Positions 38,457 to 64,000 of a stretch of 64,000 nucleotides of DNA are shown in pieces. The stretch covers positions 1 to 64,000 of the IMG/VR virus record IMGVR_UViG_2791355311_000001; one strand, 5' to 3'. Both the position numbers and the translations under genes were made by a program. Source of the stretch: a virus (Duplodnaviria > Caudoviricetes). How positions within the stretch are numbered: position 1 is the first letter of the stretch; each line of letters starts with the position of its first letter. The notes under the pieces were generated by a model. It was given only the letters and a program-made list of their open reading frames with translations. It was not told the origin of the DNA and did no database searches.

Positions 38457-38458
38457 AT

Positions 38459-39568: not shown

Positions 39569-39583
39569 CTTTAGTTACTCCTT

Positions 39584-42220: not shown

Positions 42221-42354
42221 AATTTAGCCTTTTTGATAGTTTCTTTACACTCAATGAAATGTTTAGCCATATTTTTTAAAAACTTAAGCAAATCAATATC
42301 AGCTATTGATTTTACATTGTCAATTAAGTGTATTTTGTCTTTTTCATTAATCAT
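42217..42354 (-). CDS. 45-aa hypothetical protein MINEKDKIHL... (not in the ORF track)
   Basis: Fills the gap and overlaps both neighbours. Confidence 0.4.
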   Translation of the reverse strand: MINEKDKIHLIDNVKSIADIDLLKFLKNMAKHFIECKETIKKAKL

Positions 42355-43712: not shown

Positions 43713-43859
43713 TTTCGTTTCCTTTGTTGTTAAATTTCAACAACTTTAACGAATAAGGCAGTCCAAAAACTACCCAATTTTTGGACTTTTAAAAGAAAAA
43801 TAGCGTTAAATTAAAAATTCATAATGATTAATTCTTTACGAGCTGTTTTGTTCTTAATT

Positions 43860-46883: not shown

Positions 46884-46884
46884 A

Positions 46885-48291
46885 TTAATACCTTTTTATG
46901 TTTTTTATTTGGGATTTTGTTTTTTTATGTTCGCTTTTTGTATTTTCCATAGTTACGGGGTCTATCCCTGTTAAATCCTTTATCCTAGTTAAAATTGCTG
47001 GTATATTATCTAGTTCTGCTTGAAAATCATCGCTATAAGTGCCATTTGGTAGGGTTTTAGCCATTGATTGTAATTCAGAATTAAGCTCACCGCTTAAGAC
47101 TGCTAAAGATGATAAGAAGTTATTTGTAGATGGGTCACCAAACTTTGGTAAAATTCTGTCCATTGCCTCAGCTACCTTATCACTTCTCGCTCCTTTTGCA
47201 AATCTTGTATATAGTGCATTTAACTTATTTTTTAAAGCAGTAGCCTCAATATCATCACTATTTAAGAATTGTTTTATCGCGTTTATAGGCTTGTTTGCTC
47301 CAAAAAAACCGGTATGATTACTAGCTCCTTTTTCTATCATTCCGACGATTGTGCCTAACTCTTTTAAGGCTGTTAGATTTGTCGCCATAGCTTTTGCATT
47401 CTTAGAACTTGCTATAATATTATTTCTATTAAATAATCCCCCTTTGCCTGTGCTTTCAAGCCTTATATAGTTATCTAAAGTTTGCGGGTCTAAATTCTCA
47501 ATAGGCGCTCCATATTTTGCTGACAATGCGTTTCTTGCTCTTTTGTTTCCTAAAACATAGCTTTTAACTGCTGAAAAATTAGCCTCATCTTGTTGTGCTT
47601 GTGCGTTGCTTTCTTTTATTTTTCTTATGTATTCGTATGGATTTGTGTTAAACCCTGTCCCTAATGAGGCTATTTGTGTTTTTACAAGGGTATTAACTGC
47701 TCCGTTTATTTGGTCATCTGTATACCCTTGCTGTTTTAATCGCTCCCTAGTCTTGCTAAGCCCCTCTTGTGATATTCCAAGAGTTTTAGCAACATCTGGG
47801 ACCTCTTTATTTAACCAATCTGCTTGTGAATTGGCGAGTATATTTTCAGTATTGATTTTCTCTTGTTTTTCTTGCTGGTCTGCAAACATTTTCGCATAAG
47901 CAATATCTTTATTTGCTTTAAACTCATTCCACCTAGTCCATAGGCTTTTATCTCTGTAGTCTTTTGTGTTTGCAAATTCATCTTGTTTTAAAGCATAATC
48001 TTTATTCCAATGGTCGTTTTCTACATTAAACTTATTTTGTTTAAAATCACGGTCAAACGCGTTATCGGTGATTGTTTCTTGTAATGTTTTGTTGCTTAAA
48101 TCCTCACTTGCTACATTATGCCTTTTATCCTCATCAAGCTTCATTTGTGTTTGATTTTTTGCAACATTATGCTTATAAATATCCCATAAACCACCACCTA
48201 TATCACCTGTTGCTTCTATCCTCATTCGTGATGGATTGAAATCCACCACTTTAGGGTTATAAAATGCCATAAGGTTTCCTCTCCTCGTCAT
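46885..48291 (-). CDS. Putative internal virion (ejection) protein
   Basis: MAFYNPKVVDFNP start. Position parallels 7965-8738. Confidence 0.55.
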   Translation of the reverse strand: MTRRGNLMAFYNPKVVDFNPSRMRIEATGDIGGGLWDIYKHNVAKNQTQMKLDEDKRHNVASEDLSNKTLQETITDNAFDRDFKQNKFNVENDHWNKDYALKQDEFANTKDYRDKSLWTRWNEFKANKDIAYAKMFADQQEKQEKINTENILANSQADWLNKEVPDVAKTLGISQEGLSKTRERLKQQGYTDDQINGAVNTLVKTQIASLGTGFNTNPYEYIRKIKESNAQAQQDEANFSAVKSYVLGNKRARNALSAKYGAPIENLDPQTLDNYIRLESTGKGGLFNRNNIIASSKNAKAMATNLTALKELGTIVGMIEKGASNHTGFFGANKPINAIKQFLNSDDIEATALKNKLNALYTRFAKGARSDKVAEAMDRILPKFGDPSTNNFLSSLAVLSGELNSELQSMAKTLPNGTYSDDFQAELDNIPAILTRIKDLTGIDPVTMENTKSEHKKTKSQIKNIKRY

Positions 48292-48595
48292 CTTTCCTTG
48301 CTAAAAGGCTAGTGTTCCACGCGTTTGCTAAGTTATTTTGTGCTGTATTTTCTTTATTTAGAGACCTATTAGCTAACATTTTATTATAGTCCCATTGCTC
48401 TTTCATAAGCTTATTATTCGCCCTATTTGCTTTATATTTTGAGTAACTATCGTAAATGTTTCCAGCTGTTCCAAGTGCTGTTAAAAAGTTGCTAGTTCCA
48501 TCTTTTCCACTACCGCTTAGCCACTCTTTTACACTTCCAAAATTATCGCCTATAGTTTTTCCTGCATTTCCTAAAAACTCAAAAAAGCCCATCAT
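48257..48595 (-). CDS. Small putative internal virion protein
   Basis: Similar to 8741-9019. Confidence 0.55.
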   Translation of the reverse strand: MMGFFEFLGNAGKTIGDNFGSVKEWLSGSGKDGTSNFLTALGTAGNIYDSYSKYKANRANNKLMKEQWDYNKMLANRSLNKENTAQNNLANAWNTSLLARKDDEERKPYGIL

Positions 48596-49266
48596 AGCCC
48601 CCTTAACAACTCTTCGCCTATATCAACATTTGAAACACTTTCTCCCCTTTTAATTCGCTCAAATGTATCACTCTTTGCTGTTGCTCCGTTTGTGCCTATA
48701 ATATCATCTGGTGTTTCTTTTGGAGTAGCTGTATTTAGCATTGCTTTTGCTACTATTTTCCAACCCTTGTAGTCTTCACCAAGTAGGTCAATTACTCCGT
48801 TTTCTTCAGCAAACTTTCCTAAATCTTCCGGCTTAATTGTAGGAAACTCTTTTTCAAACATATTGATATTTTGGTTAAATAGCTCTTGTTTTCGGGCTTG
48901 TTCCATCATCTGCTCTTGTTGTGCTTTAAACGCTTGTAACTCTTGCATTTTCTGGTTGTAATCAGACAATCCCAACTCTTTTAACAACGTTTCTCTTTCA
49001 AGTTCAGCTGGTGTTGGCTCTGCTTGTTGCTGTGATTGTTCTTGTGCTTGTTGTTCTTGTGCCTCTTGCTCGTTTAAAGCTTGTGCTAAAGCGTTCTTAA
49101 TATCATCAGGATTTAGCCCTTTTTGCTCTTGTGCCTCTTGCTTTGTTTCTTCTTTACTTTCTTGCCCTTGCTCTTGTGCCTCTTGCCCTTGCTCTTGTGT
49201 CTCTTGAACTTCGCTATCGCCCACTAATTCATTTACTAAACTTGCTAATGCCTCATTCTCTGTCAT
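48592..49266 (-). CDS. Putative scaffolding protein
   Basis: Gln/Glu-rich repeats, downstream of the portal. Confidence 0.65.
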   Translation of the reverse strand: MTENEALASLVNELVGDSEVQETQEQGQEAQEQGQESKEETKQEAQEQKGLNPDDIKNALAQALNEQEAQEQQAQEQSQQQAEPTPAELERETLLKELGLSDYNQKMQELQAFKAQQEQMMEQARKQELFNQNINMFEKEFPTIKPEDLGKFAEENGVIDLLGEDYKGWKIVAKAMLNTATPKETPDDIIGTNGATAKSDTFERIKRGESVSNVDIGEELLRGL

Positions 49267-49393
49267 CTTTATACTCCTTAATTGTTTGTATTAAATTTAA
49301 AATGTGTTTTTGCTTTTCTATTGCTAAAATTCTTGTCCTATCATCATTTGATGAGTTGTTAAAAGTTGCTTGTGCTTCATATAGCAAACTCAT
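49253..49393 (-). CDS. 46-aa protein after the portal (start likely MSLLYEAQ)
   Basis: ATG at 49393 with GGAG upstream. Typical small gene between portal and scaffold. Confidence 0.45.
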   Translation of the reverse strand: MSLLYEAQATFNNSSNDDRTRILAIEKQKHILNLIQTIKEYKDDRE

Positions 49394-49577
49394 CAGTTGC
49401 TCCAATATCGCCCGTGTCAGGGGGTTGTAATATTGGGAGATTTCCTTGTTCGCTAATAGCTCCTGCTCCAATATCGCTAGTTCCTGCTCCCTTGTTAATA
49501 ACATCTTGTAAGCTCTCTTCCTTTCCTAGAAATTCATCAGTATTCTTAACACCATACAACGGTAAAAGCATTCTGAT
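49377..49577 (-). pseudogene. 3' fragment (66 codons) of the prophage 2 portal gene
   Basis: IRMLLPLYGVKN... continues in frame from ...ANGKI once 49584-60319 is removed. Confidence 0.88.
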
Positions 49578-49583
49578 AATCTT
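49578..49583. repeat. Left junction core AATCTT
   Basis: Direct repeat of 60314-60319. Confidence 0.88.
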
Positions 49584-49596
49584 GTATGATTCCCCT

Positions 49597-49820
49597 ACAA
49601 CATTTATAAAAGTTCTACATTCTCAAATCATACTTTTATAAATTGTTTAAACAATGTAAAATGATGATAACTCGCTGTTAATAATTCAAGTGCTTTGACA
49701 CTGTTGGGAAGATTTTAGCGATTATCATCGTTTTTGTTACTGATTAAAATCTTAGTAAGTTTAATTAAAACTCTACTGAATACAAGAAAAGTAACAAGAA
49801 CTAAATTAAATTTTACATTC
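49597..49820 (+). ncRNA. IS110 bridge RNA (5' hairpin, target-binding loop, donor-binding loop)
   Basis: Stems 49602-13/49632-43, 49653-62/49810-19, 49663-76/49717-29, 49732-41/49790-99. Guides match donor and target junctions. Confidence 0.85.
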
Positions 49821-49836
49821 AAAAAAGGATTCACAC

Positions 49837-50802
49837 ATGAAAAAATGTTATTTTTGTGGAGTTGATGTATCCAAAAATACTTTGGATTTATGTTTTTTAA
49901 CAAACAACGATAATATAAAACCTAAATATGAAAAATTACCAAACAATAAAGAAGTATTAAAAGCTTATTTTAATTCATTTATCAGTGATGATATACTTGT
50001 AGTATTAGAATATACAAACAATTATCATATAGCATTGCAAGAAGCATTAAGCGAATTAAAAATAAAATACTCAGTACTTAACCCAAACAAAACATCACAC
50101 TTTTTAAAACACCTAACCCATATAAAATCAGATTTAACAGATAGCTATGGACTTGCTTTATATTGTAAAATGTTTAAGTCCTATATAAACCCATCTAAAT
50201 ATAATAAAGAATATATATTAATTAAAAGCTATAACACTACAAGCGAGCTTTTATCAAAGATAACAACTCAATTAAAAAATCTAAAAAAATCACAATCTTT
50301 AACTTATGATAAAGACATAGAAATAATAGTTAAAGATTTAATAAAACATATAGATAGTATAAAAGAAAAACTTAACAATATAGCTTTTGAACTACTAAAG
50401 CAATACATACCACAAACCGAGCAAATTATAAAAGATAGCAAAGGAATAGGTAAAGATTTAGCTTTAAAACTATTCCCACAGCTACATTTTAACAGATTTA
50501 AAAATGCAAAAGAATTTATCTCTTTTATTGGCTTATCGCCTAGAATTTATGAATCGGGTACAAGTGTTAAAAAAACTAAAAAAATAAATAAAATTGGAAG
50601 CAGCACAATAAGAAAAGCTTTATTTATGTCTGCTTTATCTTGTATCAGATTTAACGATAAATTTAAAACAAGATATAACAGGTTAATAGATAGTGGAAAA
50701 AATAAAAAAGTTGCTATTGTTGCAGTAATGTGTGCGATAGTCCGATTTTTAAAAAGTTATTTTAAAAATGAAACAAATACCTATAAATTTAACACAGTTT
50801 AA
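49837..50802 (+). CDS. IS110-family (bridge) recombinase
   Basis: GVDVSK, LEYT, KSDLTDS (DEDD RuvC-like). GIG, FIGLSP...ESG (catalytic Ser region), KVAIVAVM. 321 aa, intact. Confidence 0.92.
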   Translation: MKKCYFCGVDVSKNTLDLCFLTNNDNIKPKYEKLPNNKEVLKAYFNSFISDDILVVLEYTNNYHIALQEALSELKIKYSVLNPNKTSHFLKHLTHIKSDLTDSYGLALYCKMFKSYINPSKYNKEYILIKSYNTTSELLSKITTQLKNLKKSQSLTYDKDIEIIVKDLIKHIDSIKEKLNNIAFELLKQYIPQTEQIIKDSKGIGKDLALKLFPQLHFNRFKNAKEFISFIGLSPRIYESGTSVKKTKKINKIGSSTIRKALFMSALSCIRFNDKFKTRYNRLIDSGKNKKVAIVAVMCAIVRFLKSYFKNETNTYKFNTV

Positions 50803-50962
50803 AATTTTAAAATCTGTGCTTAATAACTTTAATAACAAAAGGAGTATTACAAGACAAGATATATTAAACACTACAGACATATCAAAAGATAATTTAAGTA
50901 AAACAATTAAAAATGGTTATTTGTTAGAAAACAAATTAAACAAACATTTAAACAGTTTATAA
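50768..50962 (+). CDS. Small winged-HTH-like protein
   Basis: LTQFKILK...ITRQDILNTTDISKDNLSKTIK. Confidence 0.5.
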   Translation: MKQIPINLTQFKILKSVLNNFNNKRSITRQDILNTTDISKDNLSKTIKNGYLLENKLNKHLNSL

Positions 50963-50974
50963 AAGGATGACACA

Positions 50975-51415
50975 ATGGCAAAAGCTACAGAAGCTTTATT
51001 GAACACAGAAAAAGAGCAAGAGATAAAAAATATATGGAATGCTTTAAATCAGAATAACGACTTATTCGAACAAAAGATTAAAGTAACAGGTTTAAAACTT
51101 CAAGAAGGTAAGGAAAAAATAGATAAAGATGGTAACATCTTAACAGATGAGTTTGGAGAGCCGCAAAAATGGGATAACACTTATCGTTTAAGCTATGTAT
51201 CTTTAAATAGTGGTGGCGAACACTCAACAAGAATAACACAAGAACAATATTTAAATTTAAAACTTGATGAAGTATACATCGCTTCTGGCTCTATAAAATA
51301 CGTATTATACAAAGACGCATATAACACAACCCCGACCGTGGTATTTGAAAAATTTACCCCAGCTAGCGAGTTGTTTGTAACGGCAATGTTAAAACTTGAA
51401 GGTTTAAAAAAGTAG
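50975..51415 (+). CDS. Putative single-stranded DNA-binding protein
   Basis: Beta-rich 146 aa with OB-like pattern, upstream of the RCR Rep. Function inferred from context. Confidence 0.45.
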   Translation: MAKATEALLNTEKEQEIKNIWNALNQNNDLFEQKIKVTGLKLQEGKEKIDKDGNILTDEFGEPQKWDNTYRLSYVSLNSGGEHSTRITQEQYLNLKLDEVYIASGSIKYVLYKDAYNTTPTVVFEKFTPASELFVTAMLKLEGLKK

Positions 51416-51520
51416 CGCAAGCCCTGATTTTATAGGGCTTTAAACAAAAGTAAGTGCCTAGACTATCAGTACCTCACACCGTTACAAGCCCCTTTAGATA
51501 AAAAAAGAAAGGACAAAAAA

Positions 51521-51739
51521 ATGAAAACAACAATTTTTAATTCAGATATTGAAAACATATCATCTTTAGCCAATAATAATAAACATACAATGTCTATAGC
51601 CAAAGATATAGCAAATGTTATAAATGAAATAGATAGTTCTGTTTTTGTTAATAATTTAATCTTTCTCTTAAATGATGAGCAAAAAGAGCATTTTTTATAT
51701 CACTTAAAACACTCTATCATAGAAAGTAAAACAAAATGA
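51521..51739 (+). CDS. Hypothetical protein
   Basis: SD AAAGGA; ATGA overlap with rep. Confidence 0.55.
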   Translation: MKTTIFNSDIENISSLANNNKHTMSIAKDIANVINEIDSSVFVNNLIFLLNDEQKEHFLYHLKHSIIESKTK

Positions 51740-53184
51740 TTTTTGATAGCCTAAATTTTAACATTGTTCACCAAGGTATTGATACTTTAGTTTTAGGTAT
51801 TCGTTGCAATGATGAAGAATACTACAAAAATGAGTATTCTGAGTTTATATCAAAAATTTACGATTTAAAAAATCAAGCCCAATTAATAAATACTTACGGT
51901 GAAAAATATATCCTTGATGATTTAGGCTCATCATACGGTAATTTTAAAGTGTCATCTAAAGGCTTAGGTAATTATTTCGGTTTCTTTGAAAACGATGATA
52001 TATTTTGCTTAGTAGGTGATACAAGCTTTAAAAATAAACAAATGTATCATTTAAAAATACAATTTAGAAGTATATTTTTACTTAAATACGGTCATAAAGA
52101 ATGTTATAACCGTGTAAAAGCATTTTTAAATGATATATTCAAAGATAAATTTGATGTTGAAATCTCAAGGGTTGATATTTGTACCGATGTTGCTGGTATA
52201 AAATACACACCGCAGGATTTTTTAAAATTTAGAAGTTTAAAAAGAACAACAAATTACACTCATTCAACCTATAAGCATGATAGCACACTTATAAAAGATG
52301 ATGAAACAGAAACAAATCTTATAAACTTAGAACAAATGACAATTAACAATTTTATGCAATATAACAGATTTGAAGGTATCGCATTTGGCAAATCTCCATG
52401 TATGTTTAGAATATATGACAAAGTTAATCAGGTCATTAAAAAACGTATAAGTAATTTAATATTTACTAAGTGGGAGCTTTACGGATATGATATAAACTCT
52501 AAAAGCAATGTTTATCGCCATGAAATTGAACTTGGTCGCCCCTTTGTTAAAAAACTTATGGGCGATAATGTAACTGATGAAATTTCTTTTTTATTTGATA
52601 ATTTAGGGAAATTTTGGGCTTATGGTTTAAAAATTTGTAAGTGGTATGATTTAACAGATGATGAAGTTAAGAGATTAACAGAAAGCAACATTAAATCAGA
52701 TAGCAAGCGACTTATATATTTTCGTTGTGAAGCTGACACAAACCGCTTGAATTTTTGGGATATGATTAATAAATTTGATGAAGAAAACAACGAAGCTTTA
52801 TATCTTCATAAGTTTATTAATACAAGAGATATTAAAAAAGTAAAGATAGCTTTTAAATCTTTTATATCTTCAGTTTATAGTAATTTAGGTTCATTTGATG
52901 ATAATTTCACCTATGTAATCAATGAAGTTAAAAAAGACCTTGCTATGCAAAAAATATCACTTCATGAATACGGTTTATCTAAAATGTGCGGTAGCTTTAA
53001 TAAAAACGAGCAAATTATTAAAGGTGAAAAATTAGATGTTATAAATCCATTATATCCATCACTTTATCGCTCACTTGATGACTTATTACAAGCTTTACAG
53101 GATATTAGAAATGATGATTATAAAAAAGATATTGAAAAATCTTTAACGGTTTTAAAAAATGATGGATACATTTATGAATATTAA
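51736..53184 (+). CDS. Rolling-circle replication initiator, Rep_trans-like
   Basis: GIDTL, ISRVDICTD, FG.....FRIYDK (catalytic Tyr), RHEIEL. Confidence 0.8.
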   Translation: MIFDSLNFNIVHQGIDTLVLGIRCNDEEYYKNEYSEFISKIYDLKNQAQLINTYGEKYILDDLGSSYGNFKVSSKGLGNYFGFFENDDIFCLVGDTSFKNKQMYHLKIQFRSIFLLKYGHKECYNRVKAFLNDIFKDKFDVEISRVDICTDVAGIKYTPQDFLKFRSLKRTTNYTHSTYKHDSTLIKDDETETNLINLEQMTINNFMQYNRFEGIAFGKSPCMFRIYDKVNQVIKKRISNLIFTKWELYGYDINSKSNVYRHEIELGRPFVKKLMGDNVTDEISFLFDNLGKFWAYGLKICKWYDLTDDEVKRLTESNIKSDSKRLIYFRCEADTNRLNFWDMINKFDEENNEALYLHKFINTRDIKKVKIAFKSFISSVYSNLGSFDDNFTYVINEVKKDLAMQKISLHEYGLSKMCGSFNKNEQIIKGEKLDVINPLYPSLYRSLDDLLQALQDIRNDDYKKDIEKSLTVLKNDGYIYEY

Positions 53185-53476
53185 CAATAATTTATACATA
53201 GCATTAGTTGGTTATCTAATTGAAGAAAATAAAGAAAATAAATATATTTGTATTGATTTAAGGCATTATAGTGTTATAAAATCTTTTGCAAAGCAACATG
53301 GATTTATTAAATATAATAGCTTTGTAGGGAGTTTAAAACGTTATCGTGAATTACAAGAAAAATTAGCAAAAGATTTTGTTATTGCTCCTATTCGTAAGTT
53401 TTTAAGTATTAAAAATTATACCTTTAAAATTAGGGGCGATTATCTATTTATAGTTAAACAATTTACATTATTTTAG
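53159..53476 (+). CDS. Hypothetical protein
   Basis: ORF overlapping the end of rep. Confidence 0.5.
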   Translation: MMDTFMNINNNLYIALVGYLIEENKENKYICIDLRHYSVIKSFAKQHGFIKYNSFVGSLKRYRELQEKLAKDFVIAPIRKFLSIKNYTFKIRGDYLFIVKQFTLF

Positions 53477-53491
53477 AAAGGTTTTTTTATT

Positions 53492-53869
53492 TTGATAAAA
53501 ATTAATAGTATTTCTAGTTTTTTAATTAAATTTTTAAAAGATTATTATCCATATAAAAAAAATATTTCTTTTAAAATTGAAGAAATTAATAGACATTTTT
53601 TAATTATTGATTTTTATTTTAATGAAAGCTATGTAAAAAATGATTTTAGTAATTATATAACTTTTACACATTATTTTATTTTAGATGATAGTTATCTTGT
53701 CTTTCATTTTTTTATTTTTAAAAAAGCAAAAATTCAATCATCATTTTTACAAAATTTTATAATTAATCTTAAAAATGATTTTATTTTTTCTTTCAATTTA
53801 AGAGATTATGTTTTTAATTATGATGAAAATTTAACAAAATACAAAGGAGTTATTTATGCAAATAAATAA
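53492..53869 (+). CDS. Hypothetical protein (very AT-rich)
   Basis: 125-aa ORF with TTG start that fills the operon gap. Confidence 0.4.
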   Translation: MIKINSISSFLIKFLKDYYPYKKNISFKIEEINRHFLIIDFYFNESYVKNDFSNYITFTHYFILDDSYLVFHFFIFKKAKIQSSFLQNFIINLKNDFIFSFNLRDYVFNYDENLTKYKGVIYANK

Positions 53870-54182
53870 AGAAGATATCGCAAAATTTAGCGATAAGGCA
53901 AAAGGTGTTTTCGATGGACTTTCAACAATTACAAGCGTATTTTTTCCACAAATTACTGCGCCAGTTACTGCTGTTAGTAAGGTATTTTCTAAAATATCAG
54001 AACTTGATGACACAGAAGCAGAAAACATCGCAGGTTTATCTGCTACAGCTTTTAAACTTGATGAAATGATTAAACAAGTTGAGAAAGGCGAAAAGATAGA
54101 CATTGAACACTTAAAAGAACTTTCTGAAAACATTAAAAGTATAGATAGCTCTTTAGATAAATTTTACAAGGTTATTTCATGA
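53856..54182 (+). CDS. Hypothetical helical protein, possibly virion
   Basis: SD AAGGAG; amphipathic helices. Confidence 0.6.
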   Translation: MQINKEDIAKFSDKAKGVFDGLSTITSVFFPQITAPVTAVSKVFSKISELDDTEAENIAGLSATAFKLDEMIKQVEKGEKIDIEHLKELSENIKSIDSSLDKFYKVIS

Positions 54183-54844
54183 TACAATCTGTTACAAATC
54201 TGAATCAATTTTTTGAAGAGCCTGCGGATGGTTATTATCTTTTTAATGGAAATATCTATAAAAAAATTGGAGAGATTTCATTATATATTGATAATAATAC
54301 TTATGAAAATATATCTATGCTTAACACGAAATATCGAATAATATTTGTTAAGACTTCTCTTATTACCGCAGTTGATTTAAAAGACAATAAGGACTTTATT
54401 GAATCAACTTTTTTTGATTCTGAGGGTTTTCCTTCTCGTGTCCCTGCGATTTCTTCTTCTGGCTTATCTTTGCCTTTGCTGACTCCGGTAAAATTAAAAG
54501 GTTTTGATTTTTGGTTTTGTATAGCATCTTCTTTTATGCTATACATTGACAATAATACAGAAATATTATGTTATGTTCCAGAAACTTCTTTATTAGATTG
54601 TTTTGGTAAACTTTATAATCTTTCTGTTGCTTGTCCTGCTTCGCTAATTACTGAATATAAAACTGGTGAATTATTTCCTTATTGGTTCTTTTTTAATATT
54701 TATTCTTCTTTTGGTTTGCCATTTAAAAAAGACCATTTCTTAAAAGTTCTTGCCGATAAGAAAGATTTTTTGAGTTTTGAAGAATTTAAATCTTATGATG
54801 AAGAATATTATTCTCTTTATTCTTGGGCTGATTATTTTGAATGA
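54179..54844 (+). CDS. Hypothetical protein
   Basis: ATGA overlap; aromatic, beta-rich. Confidence 0.55.
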   Translation: MIQSVTNLNQFFEEPADGYYLFNGNIYKKIGEISLYIDNNTYENISMLNTKYRIIFVKTSLITAVDLKDNKDFIESTFFDSEGFPSRVPAISSSGLSLPLLTPVKLKGFDFWFCIASSFMLYIDNNTEILCYVPETSLLDCFGKLYNLSVACPASLITEYKTGELFPYWFFFNIYSSFGLPFKKDHFLKVLADKKDFLSFEEFKSYDEEYYSLYSWADYFE

Positions 54845-54902
54845 TTTTATATTTTTTATACAAAATGTTATAATCTATAAAAAAAAGAAAGGATAAAAAA
54901 AA

Positions 54903-56039
54903 ATGCCTCTTCCTGTTGTTGGTATTATTGCTAATCTTCTCCGAACCGGTGCTATATCTGCTTTTGATATTGCTAGTGCTGGTGCTGGTTCTTATGCTTT
55001 AACAAAAACTTTAAAAGATACTGATTTAAGTTCTCCACAAAACACTGGTGATTATATAAATCCTTTAGGTTTTTCAATTGCTCGTAATATTGTTGAGCGT
55101 ATAAATAATTATTCTCGTTCAAGTTCCTCAACAACTGATTTTAATCTTTCAGAAGCTCCTTCAATACCAAAGCCTGAAGATTATATTAACAAGCTCAGGT
55201 CAATTCATGATAAGGATTATACTATTCCCGCACCATCAGCTCCGCAAACTCCTAAGAACAATTTATCTTCTTCTGCTTCGTTTGCTAGTGGTAGCTCTAA
55301 TATTAATGCTGGTAATTCAACAAATCTTATCAGTGCTATTAATTCACAAAATGCTATACTTGCGGAAATTGCTTCAGCATTAAATTCTTTTGTAGCTTTA
55401 CAAGCAACAAAATCTCTTAATATTGCAGTGCCTACACAACAAGCAAGCAAAAAAGGTGGTTTTACACAAACTATATCTACACCTTTACCAAATTTTAAAC
55501 CAAAACCTGAGCTTAACTCAAAATCACTTGAAAAAAGTTTGGATTTAATAGCAAATTTATATAAAAAGTCTCTTGAAAATCCTAGTAAATCTGTAGATTT
55601 AACAGAAGTTACCAAAGCTTTAAATAATATAGCTAAAATAAAACCTAGCATAAAAATGACAATGCCAAAAGACTTATCTATAGCTTTCCCTGAATCAATG
55701 GCTGTAACTTTACCAGCTGATTACGTTGCAAATCAGACAGCTATTAAGGAAGCTTTATCTGGAACCTTTGAAATACACAAAGAACAAGCCGAATACATGA
55801 AAACACCAGCAACAGTTAAAGACCTCGATGGTAACACCATCGCTAAAGCTACTCCAAGAGAGATGTCGCTTACATACGAAGCAACTAGAGCAAGAACTGC
55901 AACAGATGAAAACAATTTTGAACTTGATGAAAATGATATAAATGCTTTATATCCTGCTTTACCGGATATATCTCAATTATTTAAATTTAAACTTGTCGGC
56001 GAAGTTACAAAGGATTATTTAAATGAAACAAATAAATAA
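54903..56039 (+). CDS. Putative DNA-pilot/minor virion protein
   Basis: Gly/Ala-rich hydrophobic N-terminus (MPLPVVGII...AGAGSYAL), Ser/Pro linkers, strong T at third codon positions. Confidence 0.5.
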   Translation: MPLPVVGIIANLLRTGAISAFDIASAGAGSYALTKTLKDTDLSSPQNTGDYINPLGFSIARNIVERINNYSRSSSSTTDFNLSEAPSIPKPEDYINKLRSIHDKDYTIPAPSAPQTPKNNLSSSASFASGSSNINAGNSTNLISAINSQNAILAEIASALNSFVALQATKSLNIAVPTQQASKKGGFTQTISTPLPNFKPKPELNSKSLEKSLDLIANLYKKSLENPSKSVDLTEVTKALNNIAKIKPSIKMTMPKDLSIAFPESMAVTLPADYVANQTAIKEALSGTFEIHKEQAEYMKTPATVKDLDGNTIAKATPREMSLTYEATRARTATDENNFELDENDINALYPALPDISQLFKFKLVGEVTKDYLNETNK

Positions 56040-56220
56040 AAATGATTTAAAAAATAATGATGTCAATAACAACGATGATAGTAATATATTGATTGATATT
56101 ATCGTTATTCTTGTTATTATTGGTATTGCTTACTATTTTATAAGCTCTTTCAAACTTGTTGGAGATGTTTCCCGTGAATATTTGGATGAGCAAAAGGTTA
56201 TAAATAATGTCAGAAACTAA
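56023..56220 (+). CDS. Small single-TM protein
   Basis: ILIDIIVILVIIGIAYYFI. Confidence 0.55.
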   Translation: MKQINKNDLKNNDVNNNDDSNILIDIIVILVIIGIAYYFISSFKLVGDVSREYLDEQKVINNVRN

Positions 56221-56968
56221 GCAAAGTAACACAGCTCGCATTATTGGTCTTGGTGTTGATGAAATGTTTGAAGATTTAACATATTCGGTTGCTTATAACG
56301 AAGTTCTAACAAGACTTAAAAATAGTGGTATGCCTGATGGAATTTTAAACGACGCTATTAATAGTGGTATTAGTATAATGTTTTCGGCTGCTTTAATGAC
56401 TTATATCCAAAAACAAGAAGCTATTATCCATAAAATTGTTGGTATTGCTGGCTCTTTGCTTATTGCTACTCTTACGCCTGTTCGTGCCGGTGCTAAAAAT
56501 CTTTTTAAAAAATTTTCCAAAGGTCGTAAGCTTGGCATGTTTAGTAAAATTTTTGGCGATTCGGATGCTAATAATATATCTTATGGACAAGTTATTGCAA
56601 CGAGTGCTAATTCTGCTTTTAATGCTCATCAATCTTCAAGTAATGTTTTTCAAGCTGGCAGTGTTGCAATGCAACAACGGGAGCATATTCTAAACACTAA
56701 AAATCATCAGATGAATTATGCTAAAGCTAAAGTTGATAGCATAAATCAAACATTATTATTTAAACTATTTACATCTAAATTTACAAGTCAAGACAAAGAA
56801 ATTTTACGTAAAATTACTGGCTCTTCTGAGATAAACATAGAAAATATTAACAAAGTTGCTTCTTTTATGTTTGTAACAGACAGCAACGGCGATATTACAG
56901 GTCTAGCTGAACAATTTACAACTATGTTAAATGGTTTGGGGTATTTTCATAATAAGGGTAAAAAATGA
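56207..56968 (+). CDS. Putative membrane-associated virion protein
   Basis: Two hydrophobic segments followed by a basic patch. Confidence 0.55.
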   Translation: MSETKQSNTARIIGLGVDEMFEDLTYSVAYNEVLTRLKNSGMPDGILNDAINSGISIMFSAALMTYIQKQEAIIHKIVGIAGSLLIATLTPVRAGAKNLFKKFSKGRKLGMFSKIFGDSDANNISYGQVIATSANSAFNAHQSSSNVFQAGSVAMQQREHILNTKNHQMNYAKAKVDSINQTLLFKLFTSKFTSQDKEILRKITGSSEINIENINKVASFMFVTDSNGDITGLAEQFTTMLNGLGYFHNKGKK

Positions 56969-57126
56969 GTATGAGTGAACAAGAATGTAAAGAAGCTGTT
57001 GAAAAAGAAATTTTATTGTTAAGTACAATTAGTAAAAATATTGAAATATTAAATTCCAATATCCAAAAACTTTTACTTGCACTTACTGGTGAAACTGGCG
57101 ATTCTACAAAAAGTCAAGGTAATTAA
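56965..57126 (+). CDS. 53-aa coiled-coil peptide MSMSEQECKE... (not in the ORF track)
   Basis: ATGA overlap; fills the gap exactly. Confidence 0.5.
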   Translation: MSMSEQECKEAVEKEILLLSTISKNIEILNSNIQKLLLALTGETGDSTKSQGN

Positions 57127-57128
57127 AC

Positions 57129-57857
57129 ATGATTGCTCCTTTAGTTTGTTGTTGTAAAAAAGAAAAAAGGGAATTTTATCTTTCTGTTTTTCAACTTATA
57201 ATTGAACTTCATGCAAGTTCAACTTATTATGATGGTGATTTAGCAAATTTGTTTGGTATTCACGTATTTCCAATATTTCCTCTAGAATTTCAAATTAATC
57301 ACAATCTTCCTAATTTCTTTTTTCGTAAAGATATTTCTTTTCCTGAAAATCATTTACCCGGATATGACTATGAAGCACCTTTATTTTTGACTGGGTTTTT
57401 TAAAAATGCTCCTGAAACTTTTTTTTATGCTGATGATTACAGCGAAAAGCCTATTCGTATTCCTGATCCTAATTTAAGTGTATCTTCAATTAACGAAATT
57501 TACTTGGCTATATTAAATTATTATGATAAAAAATCTTTTGATATAAACAACTATACCCCCGATGAATTTTCTTTTATTTTTACAAAAAAACATTCTTTTA
57601 ACGGTTTTGATTTGTTTGGCGGCGATACAGTAAAAACAAAGCACTATAATTATAATTCTTTTTCAAGTTGTTTTAATAATCTTAAATCTCTTTATGCTGA
57701 TTTTATTTCTTCGCTTGATTTTGCTAAAAAATCAAATAATTTTTATGAAGATTTTACAGGTATTCATATAGGTAAAGAATTTACTGAAATTAGTCCTTAC
57801 TCTTTTTCTCACATTTCCAGTATTGAATTATCTATAGCACTACCAATAATAAAATAA
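57129..57857 (+). CDS. Hypothetical protein, possibly receptor-binding
   Basis: 242 aa, aromatic-rich, N-terminal CCC. Confidence 0.5.
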   Translation: MIAPLVCCCKKEKREFYLSVFQLIIELHASSTYYDGDLANLFGIHVFPIFPLEFQINHNLPNFFFRKDISFPENHLPGYDYEAPLFLTGFFKNAPETFFYADDYSEKPIRIPDPNLSVSSINEIYLAILNYYDKKSFDINNYTPDEFSFIFTKKHSFNGFDLFGGDTVKTKHYNYNSFSSCFNNLKSLYADFISSLDFAKKSNNFYEDFTGIHIGKEFTEISPYSFSHISSIELSIALPIIK

Positions 57858-57872
57858 AAAAGGAGTTAATCA

Positions 57873-58229
57873 ATGCCCGTATATAAAGTAACCCAGCAAC
57901 AAGGAAATCGTGTTATAACTTCAACATACGAAGCTAAAAGCTCTACATCTTTATTACAATTTTTACAAGAAGTATCAACCGCTAAAGTTAAGTATATATA
58001 TCGTGTAGAGTATGAAGATGAAGAAACGACACCGCCAAACGATGACTTTAATTATCACAAACAATTTAAAGCATTTGCAAAAAATAGCAATAATGCTTCT
58101 AAACAAGTTTTAATACATAATGTTAAAACAACTAAGAATGAGCAAGAATTAACAAATGCAATAATTACACATCTTAGTGTAGGAGAACAAGCAATTAAAT
58201 CTGTGGCTTGTTCTTTGTTTATGCACTAA
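57873..58229 (+). CDS. ~115-aa paralogue A, candidate structural protein
   Basis: SD AAGGAG. Pattern shared with 58967-59320 and 59342-59680. Confidence 0.6.
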   Translation: MPVYKVTQQQGNRVITSTYEAKSSTSLLQFLQEVSTAKVKYIYRVEYEDEETTPPNDDFNYHKQFKAFAKNSNNASKQVLIHNVKTTKNEQELTNAIITHLSVGEQAIKSVACSLFMH

Positions 58230-58282
58230 ATTTTTAACCTTTCTTATAATCTAACCGCTTTAATTTTGAGCCTTGTCTATTT

Positions 58283-58328
58283 AAGCCTTGCGGTCGCTCT
58301 GCGACCTGCTGGCTTGATCCTTTTTTTT
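58283..58328 (+). terminator. GC-rich hairpin followed by a T-run
   Basis: AAGCC..GGTCGC-TCT-GCGACC..GGCTT then T8. Confidence 0.5.
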
Positions 58329-58560
58329 CTCATTCTCTTACTTTTTCTTACTCTCTTTTTGCCATTTTCTATCTTCTTGAAAAACTATAATCACATCTTA
58401 TTAAATTCTTTATAAAAATACTCCCCAAACTCTTGTATTTTTTATTTTTATATTATTTTGCTTACTTGTTTTGTTTTTCTTTGATTCTATAGCTTGTTTG
58501 ATATCTTTATACAGCTTTTTAACTTAACCCTTATATTTTTTTATTTATTTCCTAATAAAT

Positions 58561-58706
58561 AATATTTTTCATTCTTGCATAAATACCCAATATTATTTTA
58601 TTTTTGCTTGTCAAGACTGCGAAGCACACCGCTAGGTGCTTGGTCTTTACAAGCTTTCAAAAATAAAATAATAAACTCCAATTTATGCCAAGAATGATAA
58701 AATATT
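58561..58706. repeat. 146-bp imperfect inverted repeat (candidate sso or packaging signal)
   Basis: Includes a 16-bp perfect arm TATTATTTTATTTTTG/CAAAAATAAAATAATA, GCTTGTCAAGAC/GTCTTTACAAGC and AAGCAC/GTGCTT. Confidence 0.8.
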
Positions 58707-58966
58707 TCTTATATCTGTTTGTTTGTCTTTTTTTTTAATCAACTAAAATTTTGTAATAAAAACATATCCATCTGTGTTAATTTCATAATTTTACATTTTT
58801 AAAAGTTGCTTAAAAACTTTTAAACGCCCCTTTATAACGTTTAATAATCATGTGTTGCTTCAACTTTTTATATTTATCTTTATAATTTGAATTGTTTTAA
58901 AAACGTTTTTTAACAAATATTTTAAGTCTATATGACACAAATAAAACAAGAAAAAAAAGGAAACAC

Positions 58967-59320
58967 ATGCTAAAACAATACATCCAAGGTTTAAATCCTA
59001 AGACATTGTCTTTTAGTGATAATAGTGATGAGGATTCTCTGTTACCACTTCTTGCTGGAAAAATTGAAAAATATGAGCAAACTGCTACTGGTGGAGCTGT
59101 ATTAAATGAACTTCCCACTACATTAAATCGTAAAGAATTTATCGTTTCTAAAGATAGTCCTACTGGTAGAATTTCTTCAATAGTTAGAATACCGCACGTT
59201 AAAGAAACTTTTTACTTTAACGAGCTTAATGCTTCTGTTAAAGGTAAATTTGATTCATCTTTTACTAGCGATGTTAAATGTGATGAAGTTAAATTACGTT
59301 TCGACTCTCTAGCAAAATAA
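58967..59320 (+). CDS. ~115-aa paralogue B, candidate structural protein
   Basis: RIPHVK.T and VKCDEV motifs. Confidence 0.6.
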   Translation: MLKQYIQGLNPKTLSFSDNSDEDSLLPLLAGKIEKYEQTATGGAVLNELPTTLNRKEFIVSKDSPTGRISSIVRIPHVKETFYFNELNASVKGKFDSSFTSDVKCDEVKLRFDSLAK

Positions 59321-59341
59321 TTAAGATAAAAGGATAAAAAA

Positions 59342-59680
59342 ATGGCTAAAACATTAATAAGAAACAAGATAGCTAGTAAAACTTTTGGTATGGCTTTGCC
59401 TGCTAGTGCTGAAACTGCAAAAGCTTTTGCTGATGTTGCTCTTGAGGGTGAATATGCAATATTTGAAAGAAAAAGTGAGCAAGGTAATGATACCGAAGCC
59501 CAAGTTATAGAATATGTTGTTACTGGTAAGAGTGAGGCAGGTTTTAAAACAACATTTAGTTTTTATGCAAATGCTAACAAAACAGAAGTTGATATTAAAA
59601 CTGCTCTTTTAGAAAAAACTTTCAACGGTGTTAAGTTTGATGAAATTTATATAATTTCGGCTAAATATGTTAAAGGTTAA
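59342..59680 (+). CDS. ~115-aa paralogue C, candidate major structural protein
   Basis: Strong SD AAAGGA, VKFDEI motif, T3-biased codons. Confidence 0.6.
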   Translation: MAKTLIRNKIASKTFGMALPASAETAKAFADVALEGEYAIFERKSEQGNDTEAQVIEYVVTGKSEAGFKTTFSFYANANKTEVDIKTALLEKTFNGVKFDEIYIISAKYVKG

Positions 59681-59691
59681 TAAACATTAAT

Positions 59692-59922
59692 ATGCAATCT
59701 TTAACAAATGAATATTTAGAGTTAGTGCTAACTGCACTAGCTCTTTTCTTATCTGGTCTCAATTGGTTTATATCTCAAAAATTATCAAGTTTTTCTTATA
59801 GACTTGATAAGATAGAAACATCTTATACTGACACTTATCAGATAAAAGCAGATATACAGCTATTAAAAGAAAAAATAGATTTCATTATTGAGATGTGTAA
59901 AGATAATAATAAAAAGGTTTAA
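59692..59922 (+). CDS. Putative holin (one TM plus coiled coil)
   Basis: LELVLTALALFLSGLNWFI, directly upstream of the endolysin. Confidence 0.55.
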   Translation: MQSLTNEYLELVLTALALFLSGLNWFISQKLSSFSYRLDKIETSYTDTYQIKADIQLLKEKIDFIIEMCKDNNKKV

Positions 59923-59924
59923 CT

Positions 59925-60266
59925 ATGCCGTTAGGAAAAGAACAAGAAGATTTCACTAAAGATTTAAATAAATTACTTACATATTTACATAATAATAACT
60001 ATAATGTAAGATGTGGTGAACTATTTAGAACACAAGAACAACAAGAAATTTACTATCAAAGAAAACTAACTAAAACAAAAAATAGCTATCATACAAAAAA
60101 ATTAGCTATTGATTTATTTATATTCAAAAACGATACATGGTTAAAAACCAAAGAGCAATTACAACCAATAGGGGATTATTGGGAGAGCTTAAACAACATA
60201 AACAAATGGGGTGGTAATTATAACAGTTTTATAGACTGTGTACATTTTGAAAGAAGAGCAAAATAA
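59925..60266 (+). CDS. Endolysin, M15 family peptidase
   Basis: S.H....AID and WGG...D..HFE. 70/113 identities to 37836-38180 by manual count. Confidence 0.85.
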   Translation: MPLGKEQEDFTKDLNKLLTYLHNNNYNVRCGELFRTQEQQEIYYQRKLTKTKNSYHTKKLAIDLFIFKNDTWLKTKEQLQPIGDYWESLNNINKWGGNYNSFIDCVHFERRAK

Positions 60267-60297
60267 GCTAAAATAAAAAACTACAATTTAAATACTC

Positions 60298-60319
60298 TTG
60301 ACATTTATCTTAAAATCTT
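60298..60319 (+). promoter_or_regulatory. Right end: -35 box TTGACA plus junction core AATCTT
   Basis: Joins TATGAT (49585-49590) at 17-bp spacing only in the circular form. Confidence 0.85.
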
Positions 60320-61735
60320 CCCATTTGCTTTTTTAAGTTGCATTGCACCTTCCATATCTTGAAGTTGCAAACAAACGCCAAGTTGATTACCAATGGCTCC
60401 CATTGCTTCCATTAGCCCCTGTTTTTGCACTTCTTTATTTAAAGCACCAATTCCCGTATTTAAACTAACTGCAAAAGATGGTATTTCATCTCTGCTATAT
60501 CCCGCAAAGAAATCAGCGTTGCCATATTTCCAAACCAATTTTGCAAGTCTTTCAAATATAGGCTCAAAAAATGTTTCGTTAAAAGTTCTAATATAACCTT
60601 GTATCCTAACGCTACCTTCATTCGCCATAATGCTAGCCATCGTTGCAGTTTCTTTTCTGTATGTACTTGCTCCATTTTGTTGAGGGCTTACACCACTTGC
60701 TTCGCTCATTTCTTGGTCTATTAAACTTACTGCTAGTTGTGCCACATTTAGATTAGGCGCAGGTAGCACTTGTAAGGCTGTTGGCTCATTTGTAAATATT
60801 GGCAAGCCTATCGTTTCTATTTGCTCCCTTGTAACATTTGCACTTGTGTTAACTACTATCTTTGGCTTTAATGCCATATTGATACCATCTATAATTGAGT
60901 TTCTTGTAATGTTTATCTCGTCTTGTAAAGGTAAAATACTAGCAAGAGGTGGCTCACCATACACACAAACAAAGTCTTGCTCGTTAAAATCTCTAACCTG
61001 TGGTGTCATATACCCAAAGATAAAGGGTTGTCCATCTTTTAGCTTAATGCCTTCTCTTAAAAGTGTTTCGTTAAATAAGGTTGAAACTTCCCATTCCCCA
61101 TTGATTTGTTCGTAAATATCATATACTTCAAAACGCTCATAAGGCTTAAATTCAATATCATCAAGGCTTAATAACACTTGTTCTTTTTTAAATATCTTTC
61201 TTTTTGCAAGTGCTAACAAATCATCAGCCGTTAAGATTAGTTTATTGACTATATAACGCACATCTCTTGGGCTTTTAGCATTTGGGTCAAAGTATATCTC
61301 ATCTAATTCTATCTCTTCAATAATAGGCATATCACCAGACCAATATACCTTAGCCACGCTTGTTCCTAAGAACGGTATTTTTTGAAAGATTGGTGCAAAT
61401 GTGTTATAAAGCTTTAGCATATCGGTGTAAATATCCAAAGCCTCTTGCCATTTGTCTATAACTTCTTGCTTAGAATTGATATAAGTTTGAAGTTTCGCAA
61501 AAGTATCATTGTTAAAATACGTTTCGCTTAAACTATCACTTATACGCTTAGCCTTTGCGTTTATCTTTGGTATATAAATGCGTGATTTGTTCCTTTTTGC
61601 AAGTGATGTTATCTGCTCTTGTTCTAGATTAAGCAAGTAAGCACTATTTAATTTATCAAAGCTAGGCTTATACTTTTCAAAGCCGTCCTTCGCATTTGAT
61701 AACAACTCTTGCAAATAAACTACATCTTTTCCCAT
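60314..61735 (-). pseudogene. 5' part (474 codons) of the prophage 2 portal gene, interrupted
   Basis: KSRIYIP, FDPNA, CVYGE, LQDEIN.TRN. Stops two codons into the inserted element. Confidence 0.88.
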
Positions 61736-61736
61736 A

Positions 61737-62018
61737 TCACTTTACCAAAGGTGTTACATCTTGCACGAAATCGGTTATAAACTCATCATCTTTTAATGCA
61801 TTTATAGCCTTTAAACTATCATCATCCATACCACCTGTTAAAGGTATTTTAGCGATAAGCTGAGCTGAGCCTATAACATCTCTCCAATACACACCCTTGC
61901 TTATATATTCAAGCATAATATCAGCCTTTTTCTTGCTAAGCTCATCGCCCCTTATATACTCATATTCGGGTATTTGTTTAACTTCTTGTAACTCTTCTTT
62001 AATCTCTTTCTTTGCCAT
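61737..62018 (-). CDS. Hypothetical phage protein
   Basis: ORF between terL and portal. Confidence 0.55.
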   Translation of the reverse strand: MAKKEIKEELQEVKQIPEYEYIRGDELSKKKADIMLEYISKGVYWRDVIGSAQLIAKIPLTGGMDDDSLKAINALKDDEFITDFVQDVTPLVK

Positions 62019-62346
62019 TTTCTTGCTCCTTTTTCTTTATGTTAAAATATGTTGATTTGCTAACCCCAGTCATTTGCATAACTTTGTCCTTGCAAACACC
62101 TTTTTTAATTAGTCTCTTAACTAACTCAACCTTTGCCTTTTTCTTTGGAATATATTTAATACCGCTAGTTATTTCGCAAATCATACTAGCGATAACAAGG
62201 CTAAGGTCTTCATCGTTTAGCTTAACTGCGTCCCTTATAACGCCCAAGCTTATGTTTTGCCGAATATATTCAAATTTCCAGTCCAAATTCAACCCAATTT
62301 TTGGACTATTCTCTTTTTTACCACGCGTTTTCACTATAAAATTCAT
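61999..62346 (-). CDS. Protein with C-terminal HTH (Mor-like regulator?)
   Basis: SGIKYIPK...KVMQMTGVSKSTYFNI. Confidence 0.55.
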   Translation of the reverse strand: MNFIVKTRGKKENSPKIGLNLDWKFEYIRQNISLGVIRDAVKLNDEDLSLVIASMICEITSGIKYIPKKKAKVELVKRLIKKGVCKDKVMQMTGVSKSTYFNIKKKEQENGKERD

Positions 62347-63643
62347 ATTCTTGCTCTATTTTGTTATAATTTATGCCATCGTAAAAGCATAAAGCTAAAC
62401 TATCAGCATAATCAGGACTCACCCCATAATCTTTTTTTATCTCTGTTTTTGGAATTATCAAATATCTATCTTGCTTATCATAAGCAAACTCAATCATCTG
62501 CAATTGTTTTTTTAGTTTTTCGCTGTGAGTTATTGCTAGTAAATGAAACTTCTCTTTTAAATTAAAATACATTTCAGCGCGTTTGTTAAAATATCTCTTT
62601 TGATTTGTTGCTTTAAAACTTGCCTTTGCTTCTACACAAACACCCCTTAAGCCCAAATCACAAAGCATATCAAAGACACCAGCACCGACGCCTATAGTGT
62701 CTATGTATATCCATTTTGGTTTAATTTGGGCGAGGTTGTATTCCCTTAATATCTCTCTTGCAAGTTGTGTAACTGAATTAATCCTGTATGACTGAAACTC
62801 CGTTATATTGTAACCTTGCCTTTTGCATAAAACACTCTCATCATCGCCCTCACGTGCGACATCAAGACCCCACACATTCATATCATCGGGGTTAAAAGTT
62901 AGCTCTTTGTTAAACGCATTTTCAATCATTGAAACGCTAAACATTGCGTTGCTTGTAGTGTCTAAAAATTCGCCATATATCTCTTGTTTGACAACATCAC
63001 TATCAGCGCCGCCTAGTTCCTCGATAAGTTCGTTGATTTCATTTTCTCTAAGCATTGGGTTATCAAAGCTAGAAACTTGATAATTAACCCAATCCTTTTC
63101 GTTTCTCATGCCTTTTATTGCTAAATCATAAAACTTATTCTTGCCTTTTGGAACACCACCTATAAAAGCCCTTGAATTAGGATAATCAAGCAACATAGGT
63201 CTTATTGCGTTATCCCAAAGATAGCTATTTTTTAAGATAATTCCTGCCTCGTTTAGTATAATGATGTCATAGCCAAAGCCCTCTATATTTTCAGGTCTTT
63301 CAGCACTTCGCATATCTAAAAAAGCCTCGTTATTAAAGACTAAGCGTTTATCTTGTGAGTAGAATTTCCAAAAATCGCTAGGTAGTTGTTTTAATTCAGG
63401 TAAAAAATAACGCTCAAAATAACGCTGTAAGTTTGATGTGATAGTATCTACCCAAAGGATTTTCTTACCTTCAAGTAACCACTCAATACTAGCATTTGCT
63501 ATCCCTTTTGTGTAGCCTACACGGCGACCTTTTTCAATTGTGGTAAATTTTGATTTGTTTTTAAAAAATACTTCCCTTTGCCAAGGTGCATATTTTAAAC
63601 TTATAGTTGCATCACTCATCATCAACCAATCCCTTACGCTCAA
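62318..63643 (-). CDS. terL: Terminase large subunit
   Basis: KGRRVGYT (Walker A variant), IILNEA, GVPKGKN.FY, GLDVAREGDD, SPDYADSLAL. Confidence 0.88.
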   Translation of the reverse strand: MSVRDWLMMSDATISLKYAPWQREVFFKNKSKFTTIEKGRRVGYTKGIANASIEWLLEGKKILWVDTITSNLQRYFERYFLPELKQLPSDFWKFYSQDKRLVFNNEAFLDMRSAERPENIEGFGYDIIILNEAGIILKNSYLWDNAIRPMLLDYPNSRAFIGGVPKGKNKFYDLAIKGMRNEKDWVNYQVSSFDNPMLRENEINELIEELGGADSDVVKQEIYGEFLDTTSNAMFSVSMIENAFNKELTFNPDDMNVWGLDVAREGDDESVLCKRQGYNITEFQSYRINSVTQLAREILREYNLAQIKPKWIYIDTIGVGAGVFDMLCDLGLRGVCVEAKASFKATNQKRYFNKRAEMYFNLKEKFHLLAITHSEKLKKQLQMIEFAYDKQDRYLIIPKTEIKKDYGVSPDYADSLALCFYDGINYNKIEQEYEFYSENAW

Positions 63644-63998
63644 TAGTTATTTTGTTATTGTTCTGTTGTGCGTTTGTGTTGTTTATTATCGTATTTGCTT
63701 CTTTACCAAGCACCGTTTCTTTATTTCTTGCTGTTATTCTGCTGTGTGCTTCTACATCTTGTATCGTGTCTGCCATCTCCAAAAGCTCATTTGCTTTTTT
63801 TTGATTTGCTAAGGCGATATTTTGAAAATAGATTAAATGTTTGGTTCTTTCTTCCACCACTTCGTGAAAAGCTTTCACTTCTTTTTCATTTAGCTTTGCT
63901 AGCTCTGTTTTTATCGCGACTTCAGTTTTCACAAGTTCTTTTAAATTTTGTTCTACATCTTTGCAAAGATTATAAACAAAGCCAACACTAACATCATA
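63612..63998 (-). CDS. Putative terminase small subunit (5' end outside window)
   Basis: Frame is open to the window edge (YDVSVGFVYNLCK..., HTH-like) and lies directly upstream of terL. Confidence 0.55.
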   Translation of the reverse strand, partial: YDVSVGFVYNLCKDVEQNLKELVKTEVAIKTELAKLNEKEVKAFHEVVEERTKHLIYFQNIALANQKKANELLEMADTIQDVEAHSRITARNKETVLGKEANTIINNTNAQQNNNKITIERKGLVDDE

Positions 63999-64000
63999 TT

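Follow-up and report, generated by a model that had tools for sequence, protein, structure and literature searches.

An IS110-encoding, virus-like element splits a prophage portal gene at a near-match to its predicted RNA guide

Small tailless lytic single-stranded DNA phages (FLiP, phiCjT23, Obscuriviridae) combine a rolling-circle replication initiator (Rep) with a lysis gene and lack terminase and portal. Insertion sequences of the IS110/IS621 type carry a recombinase with DEDD and Tnp domains, a CT core and, at the left end, a bridge RNA that has one loop each for target and donor, and in IS621 a sigma-70 promoter is rebuilt across the joined ends (PMC11208160). IS110 elements with large cargo have been described in a preprint whose main text mentions neither Campylobacter nor prophages nor capsids (bioRxiv 10.64898/2026.08.14.744561). 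The Nf/MDA prophages of Neisseria and the filamentous prophages of Thermus integrate by their own IS110 transposase (PMC7058167, PMC11437467), so a virus with such a recombinase is not new; those, however, are non-lytic inoviruses. Helper-embedded phage-inducible chromosomal islands (HE-PICIs) are described as elements of 10-20 kb inside prophage late genes, portal sites included, whose precise excision would restore the gene (PMC10111431). Here we describe an element inserted in the portal gene of the second of two tandem prophages (prophage 2), in the 64,000-nt stretch of IMGVR_UViG_2791355311_000001 that was analysed (the window; positions are in window numbering unless marked G000, its own genome). 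Named members of the element's protein clusters belong to Campylobacter pinnipediorum. The coordinates of its features are collected in Table 1.

The element resembles each of these systems in part. With IS110/IS621 it shares the recombinase domains, CT core, bridge RNA, circle-junction promoter, lineages that target repeats and off-target near-matches. With the Nf type it has in common a rolling-circle genome of about 8-10 kb, an IS110 gene at one end and a CT core in host repeats; with HE-PICIs, its size, its place in a late gene and restoration by precise removal. Its size, Rep, lysis gene and lack of terminase and portal recall the tailless phages.

We found that the two parts of the portal gene, 60320-61735 (472 codons) and 49377-49583 (68 codons and the stop), form one frame of 540 aa in total. 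The first-pass annotation, made from the sequence alone, had proposed that removing 49584-60319 rebuilds the portal, and this was borne out; its count of 474 and 66 codons describes the same join, with the 6-bp repeat assigned to the other side. That repeat, AATCTT, is present at both junctions (49578-49583 and 60314-60319), and the GC content is 27.3% in the element against 34% in the flanking prophage. The search for an uninterrupted allele that it had called for found P0074, a natural 540-aa portal of the same 90% cluster. Its sequence includes ...KKANGKIIRMLLPLYG..., and comparing each half with it separately shows agreement at 539 of 540 residues in all. The 3' part is identical to P0074 residues 473-540 from the join onwards, and the 5' part equals residues 1-472 apart from T297K. 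The 5' part matches PF23899 SU10_portal and phrog_332. By BLASTP, 29 of the 30 closer homologous open reading frames (ORFs) from phage and genome loci span both halves in one open frame; the exception (L081) aligned with the N half only at E<1e-3. The term 'scarless' describes the sequence: precise excision would rebuild the portal gene.

Table 1. Features of the portal locus and the inserted element (window positions)
Feature	Position	Strand	Basis or remark
Inserted element, 10,736 bp	49584..60319	+	CT core 49581-49582 and 60317-60318 within AATCTT repeat; relatives have the same ends
Portal 5' part	60305..61735	-	472 native codons, then into the element end, giving a 476-aa truncated ORF
Portal 3' part	49377..49583	-	68 codons and stop; carries conserved LPLYG-K motif
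Prophage 2	35207..64000, on to G000:331,326 (3' end of transfer-messenger RNA, tmRNA)	-	attachment (att) repeats, tmRNA, integrase, synteny with related prophage
Predicted bridge RNA	49596..49830	+	two-internal-loop fold, z = -6.3; guide/flank covariation
Predicted guides	left target 49678-49686, right target 49705-49709, left donor 49744-49753, right donor 49780-49787	+	
-10 box TATGAT	49585..49590	+	promoter complete only once the two ends join
-35 box TTGACA	60298..60303	+	circle-junction promoter
IS110 recombinase, 321 aa	49837..50802	+	PF01548 and PF02371; NF033542 147 bits, cut-off 140
Probable winged-helix regulator, 64 aa	50768..50962	+	gene conserved in relatives; weak MarR_2 match, E 0.02
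Conserved protein, 146 aa, probable ssDNA-binding protein	50975..51415	+	putative function from position only
Rolling-circle initiator, Rep_trans fold, 482 aa	51736..53184	+	low-confidence predicted model (mean predicted local distance difference test, pLDDT, 49) matches RepDE 4cwc (E 3e-5) and 4cij
Genes for 378, 65 and 253 aa	54903..56968	+	probable minor virion or DNA-delivery proteins
Paralogue 1, 118 aa, candidate structural protein	57873..58229	+	63 relatives at E<=0.001
Paralogues 2 and 3, 117 and 112 aa, candidate structural proteins	58967..59680	+	tandem beta-beta-alpha-beta repeats in model
Holin-like protein, 76 aa, and M15 endolysin, 113 aa	59692..60266	+	endolysin: PF13539, endolysin PHROGs

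Prophage 2 follows prophage 1 at the 3' end of the tmRNA gene, with att repeats at G000 244,947, 281,865 and 331,326, and has its own integrase. It measures 49.5 kb with the element and 38.7 kb without it (28% longer with the element). The earlier impression that its other head genes are intact agrees with our comparison: terminase, scaffold-like gene, capsid and most other late genes match their counterparts in a related prophage, in the same order and for the most part across almost the whole gene. The likeness to the 558-aa portal of prophage 1 holds for length and fails for sequence (23% identity over 441 aa), and rescue by that portal was judged unlikely at this identity.

The fold of the element's left end has a 5' hairpin and a pair of internal loops; the first loop fits the portal site and the second the element's own joined ends. 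When the ends are joined, TTGAC(A/T)-17-TATGAT is formed in 22 of the 22 elements with both ends that were examined. In line with the earlier claim that an RNA guide recognises the portal, the right guide pairs at 5/5 positions and the left guide by 6 Watson-Crick and 2 wobble pairs with 1 mismatch of 9, giving a score of 12/14. We compared guides with flanks across the family, in 23 elements with both ends and flanks and 13 distinct guide pairs, many of them close kin. The mean score was 13.2/14; with guides swapped it was 7.0, and at most 8.2 in 2,000, the best of two registers being taken for real and swapped guides alike. Excluded were six one-ended elements, three lacking a left end, one whose guide could not be parsed and one lying at a contig edge. 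The target layout, about 8-9 + 2 + 5 nt, differs from that of IS110/IS621, as does the left core, which varies (TT, CT, AT) while right junctions always carry the donor CT. A fixed right CT and variable left cores fit strand-asymmetric recombination.

Insertion sites differ with guide score. Fifteen of 22 relatives score at least 13.5, and at none of the 14 of these sites that were checked is the element flanked by long frames on both sides; perfect-guide insertions are intergenic, and most relatives are found between genes or in a repeat of the host. The host repeat occupied by one lineage has 13-41 matches per genome in all four of the other genomes that were searched, and G000 has none. Scores of the three relatives that clearly split a gene are 10.5-12.5, and that of the portal-inserted element is 12. 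These imperfect insertions lie in cas3 (L073), in a gene of an integrase-bearing island (L067) and in a 171-codon frame (L061); all three, like the portal insertion, are oriented against the split gene. Genome G041 contains two copies with one and the same guide, the first where its lineage is usually found and the other at a mismatched site (L063, L059). The cas3 gene cut in L073 (G113:C3, element at about 38.1-47.9 kb) stands beside cas4 in a CRISPR-Cas locus and is divided into HD and helicase halves.

We favour, with a probability of about 0.6, the reading that an independent virus-like element inserted at a near-match and thereby blocks packaging of the prophage, and that the locus is not a built-in switch. 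The element would be a temperate, rolling-circle, virus-like entity with an IS110 bridge recombinase as its integrase. An incoming circle would express the bridge RNA, meet no perfect target in the genome and integrate at one of the best near-matches, the portal gene of prophage 2, which is also donor-like (AATCTT). The host would survive because the portal gene is, as we propose, dispensable to the cell. Insertion would truncate the portal, cut off the rest of the late genes from the operon upstream and lengthen the prophage by 28%, leaving it very likely packaging-dead. Precise double-strand excision would restore the portal, probably rarely and unlinked to prophage induction; the element probably exits as a copied single-stranded circle, with the portal gene left unrepaired, and would not need prophage 2 as a helper.

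The block itself very likely holds while the element is in place, since the conserved LPLYG-K motif is lost and the late operon is cut. Among 61 portal homologues, pre-filtered to 495-570 aa so that shorter forms were excluded by design, all reach at least position 497 and retain LPLYG-K (P480 in 59/61, G483 in 60/61, K485 in 56/61). The role of the motif was judged from this conservation because no solved structure matching the portal by sequence was found. The element also separates terminase and portal from the closely spaced, unidirectional genes for scaffold, capsid, tail and lysis. A nearly neutral insertion would require that the 476-aa portal works and that downstream genes use promoters inside the element. 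The truncated product does retain 87% of the full length, conservation is poor over the final ~40 residues, and leftward promoter-like sites occur within the element at 97 against 81±10 in shuffled sequence, little above background. With every homologue in the filtered set reaching beyond the break and keeping the motif, and with a genome that would be 49.5 kb rather than 38.7 kb, we consider such neutrality very improbable.

Several observations weigh against a chance near-match by an autonomous element. No perfect target for its guide was found in its own genome, and the tested guide-target pattern occurs in only 1 of the 142 genus genomes (141 others and its own). The portal site tops the CT-core sites with a full right match in the genome (12 against at most 11.5 among 84), while 31 genome sites score at least 12 overall, 8 of them with a full right match. 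By hand reading, two of the three positions at which guide and site differ are synonymous third codon positions and the other is an R/K change, a pattern to be expected of a guide set on a sister portal allele; this is a weak indication, which by chance would arise roughly 1 time in 5 to 1 in 10. No capsid or packaging ATPase was identified among the genes of the element, which leaves its autonomy presumptive. The circle junction had 0 matches in viral contigs; at least 115 metagenome pattern matches gave no true junction, and none of the matches listed carried element genes. Sequencing run X1 gave scattered near-identical contigs of 260-740 bp at depth 2-3, too sparse to be informative, and no circle or empty-site joints.

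The points on target choice would suit a targeted phage-on-phage attack, with the guide redirected to this phage group's portal and a competing prophage disarmed, no excision being needed. Few portals have NGK at the site (E in 40/61 at G472), which makes the match lineage-specific, and the imperfect insertions in cas3 and in the integrative island may likewise bring a gain to the relatives. However, 30 more distant homologous portals score only 4.5-10/14 with this guide. The intact portal P0074 and a near-identical Rep, P0078, suggest a single sister strain that holds the element together with an unbroken portal. Survivorship alone would account for hits in dispensable genes, and the portal is a single case. 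Of the earlier suggestion that the element disarms the prophage, the packaging block stands as very likely, and deliberate targeting is possible, though we think it unlikely.

The same annotation had proposed a dedicated relation with a helper: a helper-embedded satellite would wait in the portal, replicate with the induced prophage, excise and so license helper packaging as a DNA-level switch. Such a switch would fit the exactly restorable portal, the otherwise intact prophage with att sites and integrase, the lack of a recognised capsid in the element and the precedent of HE-PICIs at portal sites (PMC10111431); like them, the element sits in a prophage late gene without a replacement sequence. 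HE-PICIs, however, are described with a tyrosine integrase clade, AlpA and primase, whereas the portal element has an RNA-guided IS110 recombinase and a Rep_trans initiator, and its 19 ORFs gave no Pfam or PHROG match to a PICI-type tyrosine integrase, AlpA or primase. They share the late gene's orientation (PMC10111431), whereas the element genes are on the plus strand and the portal on the minus strand. Late transcription would thus be antisense to the bridge RNA, and supply of bridge RNA by late read-through, which would be the simplest coupling between prophage and element, is therefore absent. The element also has its own Rep and lysis genes.

Comparison of relatives pointed the same way. 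Whether they also hit portal or other phage genes had been set beforehand as a test, with insertion at unrelated non-phage sites as the refuting outcome, and the result went against the proposal: none of the 26 with flanks matched any of 191 prophage-region ORFs, a comparison that detects only related phages. HE-PICIs are described as recurring at late genes, whereas the portal insertion is the only phage-gene insertion seen in this family. Element and portal prophage did not co-occur above chance (9/30 against 29/111, p 0.65), nor was there enrichment with close-type portal prophages (2/30 against 20/111, p 0.16), in a test weakened by draft genomes and kinship. Excision of IS621 is reported as inefficient or rare and mostly copy-out, and the recombinase of the portal element may behave in the same way. 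The proposed switch is therefore improbable in our view, and a dedicated relation with a helper found no support.

The gene content suggests that the element is self-replicating, virus-like and probably lytic. Its recombinase has a DEDD RuvC domain and a C-terminal Tnp domain. The 146-aa protein is 60-66% identical in genus relatives, and its homologue precedes rep in distant relatives. No Pfam match was found for the 482-aa initiator. The 253-aa protein and the C-terminus of the 378-aa protein are conserved order-wide. The 112-118-aa proteins were not recognised as paralogues on shallow alignments and were on deeper ones, HHalign giving 87-88% for paralogue 1 against the others and 95% for paralogue 2 against 3. 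The 112-aa model (pLDDT 90) is not a jelly roll, and no convincing fold match was found for it (BFVD best E 0.046; PDB best Z 5.6 over half the chain). The holin role of the 76-aa protein is putative, from position and a hydrophobic stretch.

Pfam/PHROG scans of the element found no terminase, portal, HK97 capsid, primase or Zot, and no capsid was identified in Pfam/PHROG, Atlas, BFVD and PDB comparisons of the element proteins. Unlike Nf-type inoviruses, it lacks a Zot/pI ATPase, has an endolysin and a holin-like gene in place of extrusion, and carries unrelated small structural candidates. Tailless jelly-roll phages may differ in their capsid: no jelly roll was found here, and the one structural candidate that was folded consists of tandem beta-beta-alpha-beta repeats. 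The only Zot-family gene in the genome (G000:C1:635,389-636,018, L306) lies outside both prophages and the element. The element endolysin (59925-60266) shares 62.5% identity with its prophage 2 counterpart (37836-38180), near its identity to the endolysins of relatives; lysis-gene exchange between the element and such phages is possible.

The element belongs to a family. Rep matches were found in 30/141 other genus genomes and IS110 matches in 32/141; at 29 of the 30 loci examined the gene order is the same as far as contigs reach, and the remaining one is a remnant. A profile of the 118-aa protein found matches in 26/401 phylum genomes and 8/64 genera. Among the distant relatives (12 regions, 11 loci), the core stands beside IS110 in seven and beside a tyrosine integrase in two, with two left unassigned; lysins vary (M15, lysozyme, GH108), and the flanks that were checked are chromosomal genes. 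Since integrases and lysins vary around a shared core, the core is best read as a virus-like replication-structure-lysis module with an exchangeable integration gene. This fixed syntenic cargo, carried on a tyrosine integrase in some relatives, separates the family from IS110/IS621. In L348 and L349 the integrase replaces IS110, and two copies of the 118-aa family gene are adjacent.

The portal DNA, Rep and the 118-aa protein had no match in GenBank phages or PLSDB plasmids. The family was not found in the literature, with supplements and most subscription papers outside the search; the supplements of the large-IS110 preprint could list it. The C. concisus CON_Pii islands proved unrelated to the element, and no link to it was found in a paper on dark-matter circular viruses.

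A portal split alone has precedent in HE-PICIs, and the element family is the more durable result. It offers a virus-like module across Campylobacterales in which an IS110 guide has naturally been rewritten in at least 13 ways with matching sites, and hence a dataset on bridge RNA retargeting and mis-targeting. The family couples the reported single-strand copy-out excision with a rolling-circle replicon; its virion proteins, if any, are unassigned. The portal locus serves as its own reporter, in that any infectious particle of prophage 2 would be a mark of precise double-strand excision; the question of cut-out or copy-out could therefore be tested in a natural host. A bolder proposal, that the elements are small lytic viruses of a new family whose virion fold has gone unrecognised and which integrate by a reprogrammable bridge RNA, and that in this lineage the guide was reprogrammed to the portal of a co-resident tailed phage (elsewhere to cas3 and mobile islands) as a reversible off-switch on a competitor or helper, is in our estimate doubtful.

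Further members of the family were seen in altered form. Decayed left ends occur in G000 at C1 573,092-573,650, 814,475, 490,772 and 714,829 (L042-L044, L174-L182), all chromosomal and intergenic; one has another guide and a ruined recombinase start, and two are common to G079. L133 (G087:C1:1,278,169-1,282,101) is an internal-deletion derivative of ~2 kb that keeps both ends, the recombinase, the small regulator, the holin-like gene and the endolysin. In a distant relative, L339/L340 (G272:C15:69,015-87,075), 9,067 bp are duplicated in tandem, and most of the recombinase is missing from the second copy; an origin-to-origin repeat was ruled out as its explanation. Another relative, L342 (G337:C1:1,177,000-1,196,900), has as neighbours, at a distance of a few kb, a glycosyltransferase cluster and genes similar to those for subunits of cytolethal distending toxin.

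The two prophages, 1 (window 1-35206) and 2 (35207-64000), are unrelated and podovirus-like. Their tail/lysis stretches are 88-98% identical (15140-17636 and 39197-41334), which suggests recent exchange. A simple scan found no CRISPR array in their own genome. Among the genes of prophage 1 are those for a DarB-like helicase/methylase of 2,172 aa and for a MazF-like toxin (window 1443-7961 and 748-1362), and the early region of prophage 2 contains toxin-antitoxin-like pairs as well as a gene resembling those for small alarmone synthetases (L045 15712-16707; G000 320.7-321.7 kb).

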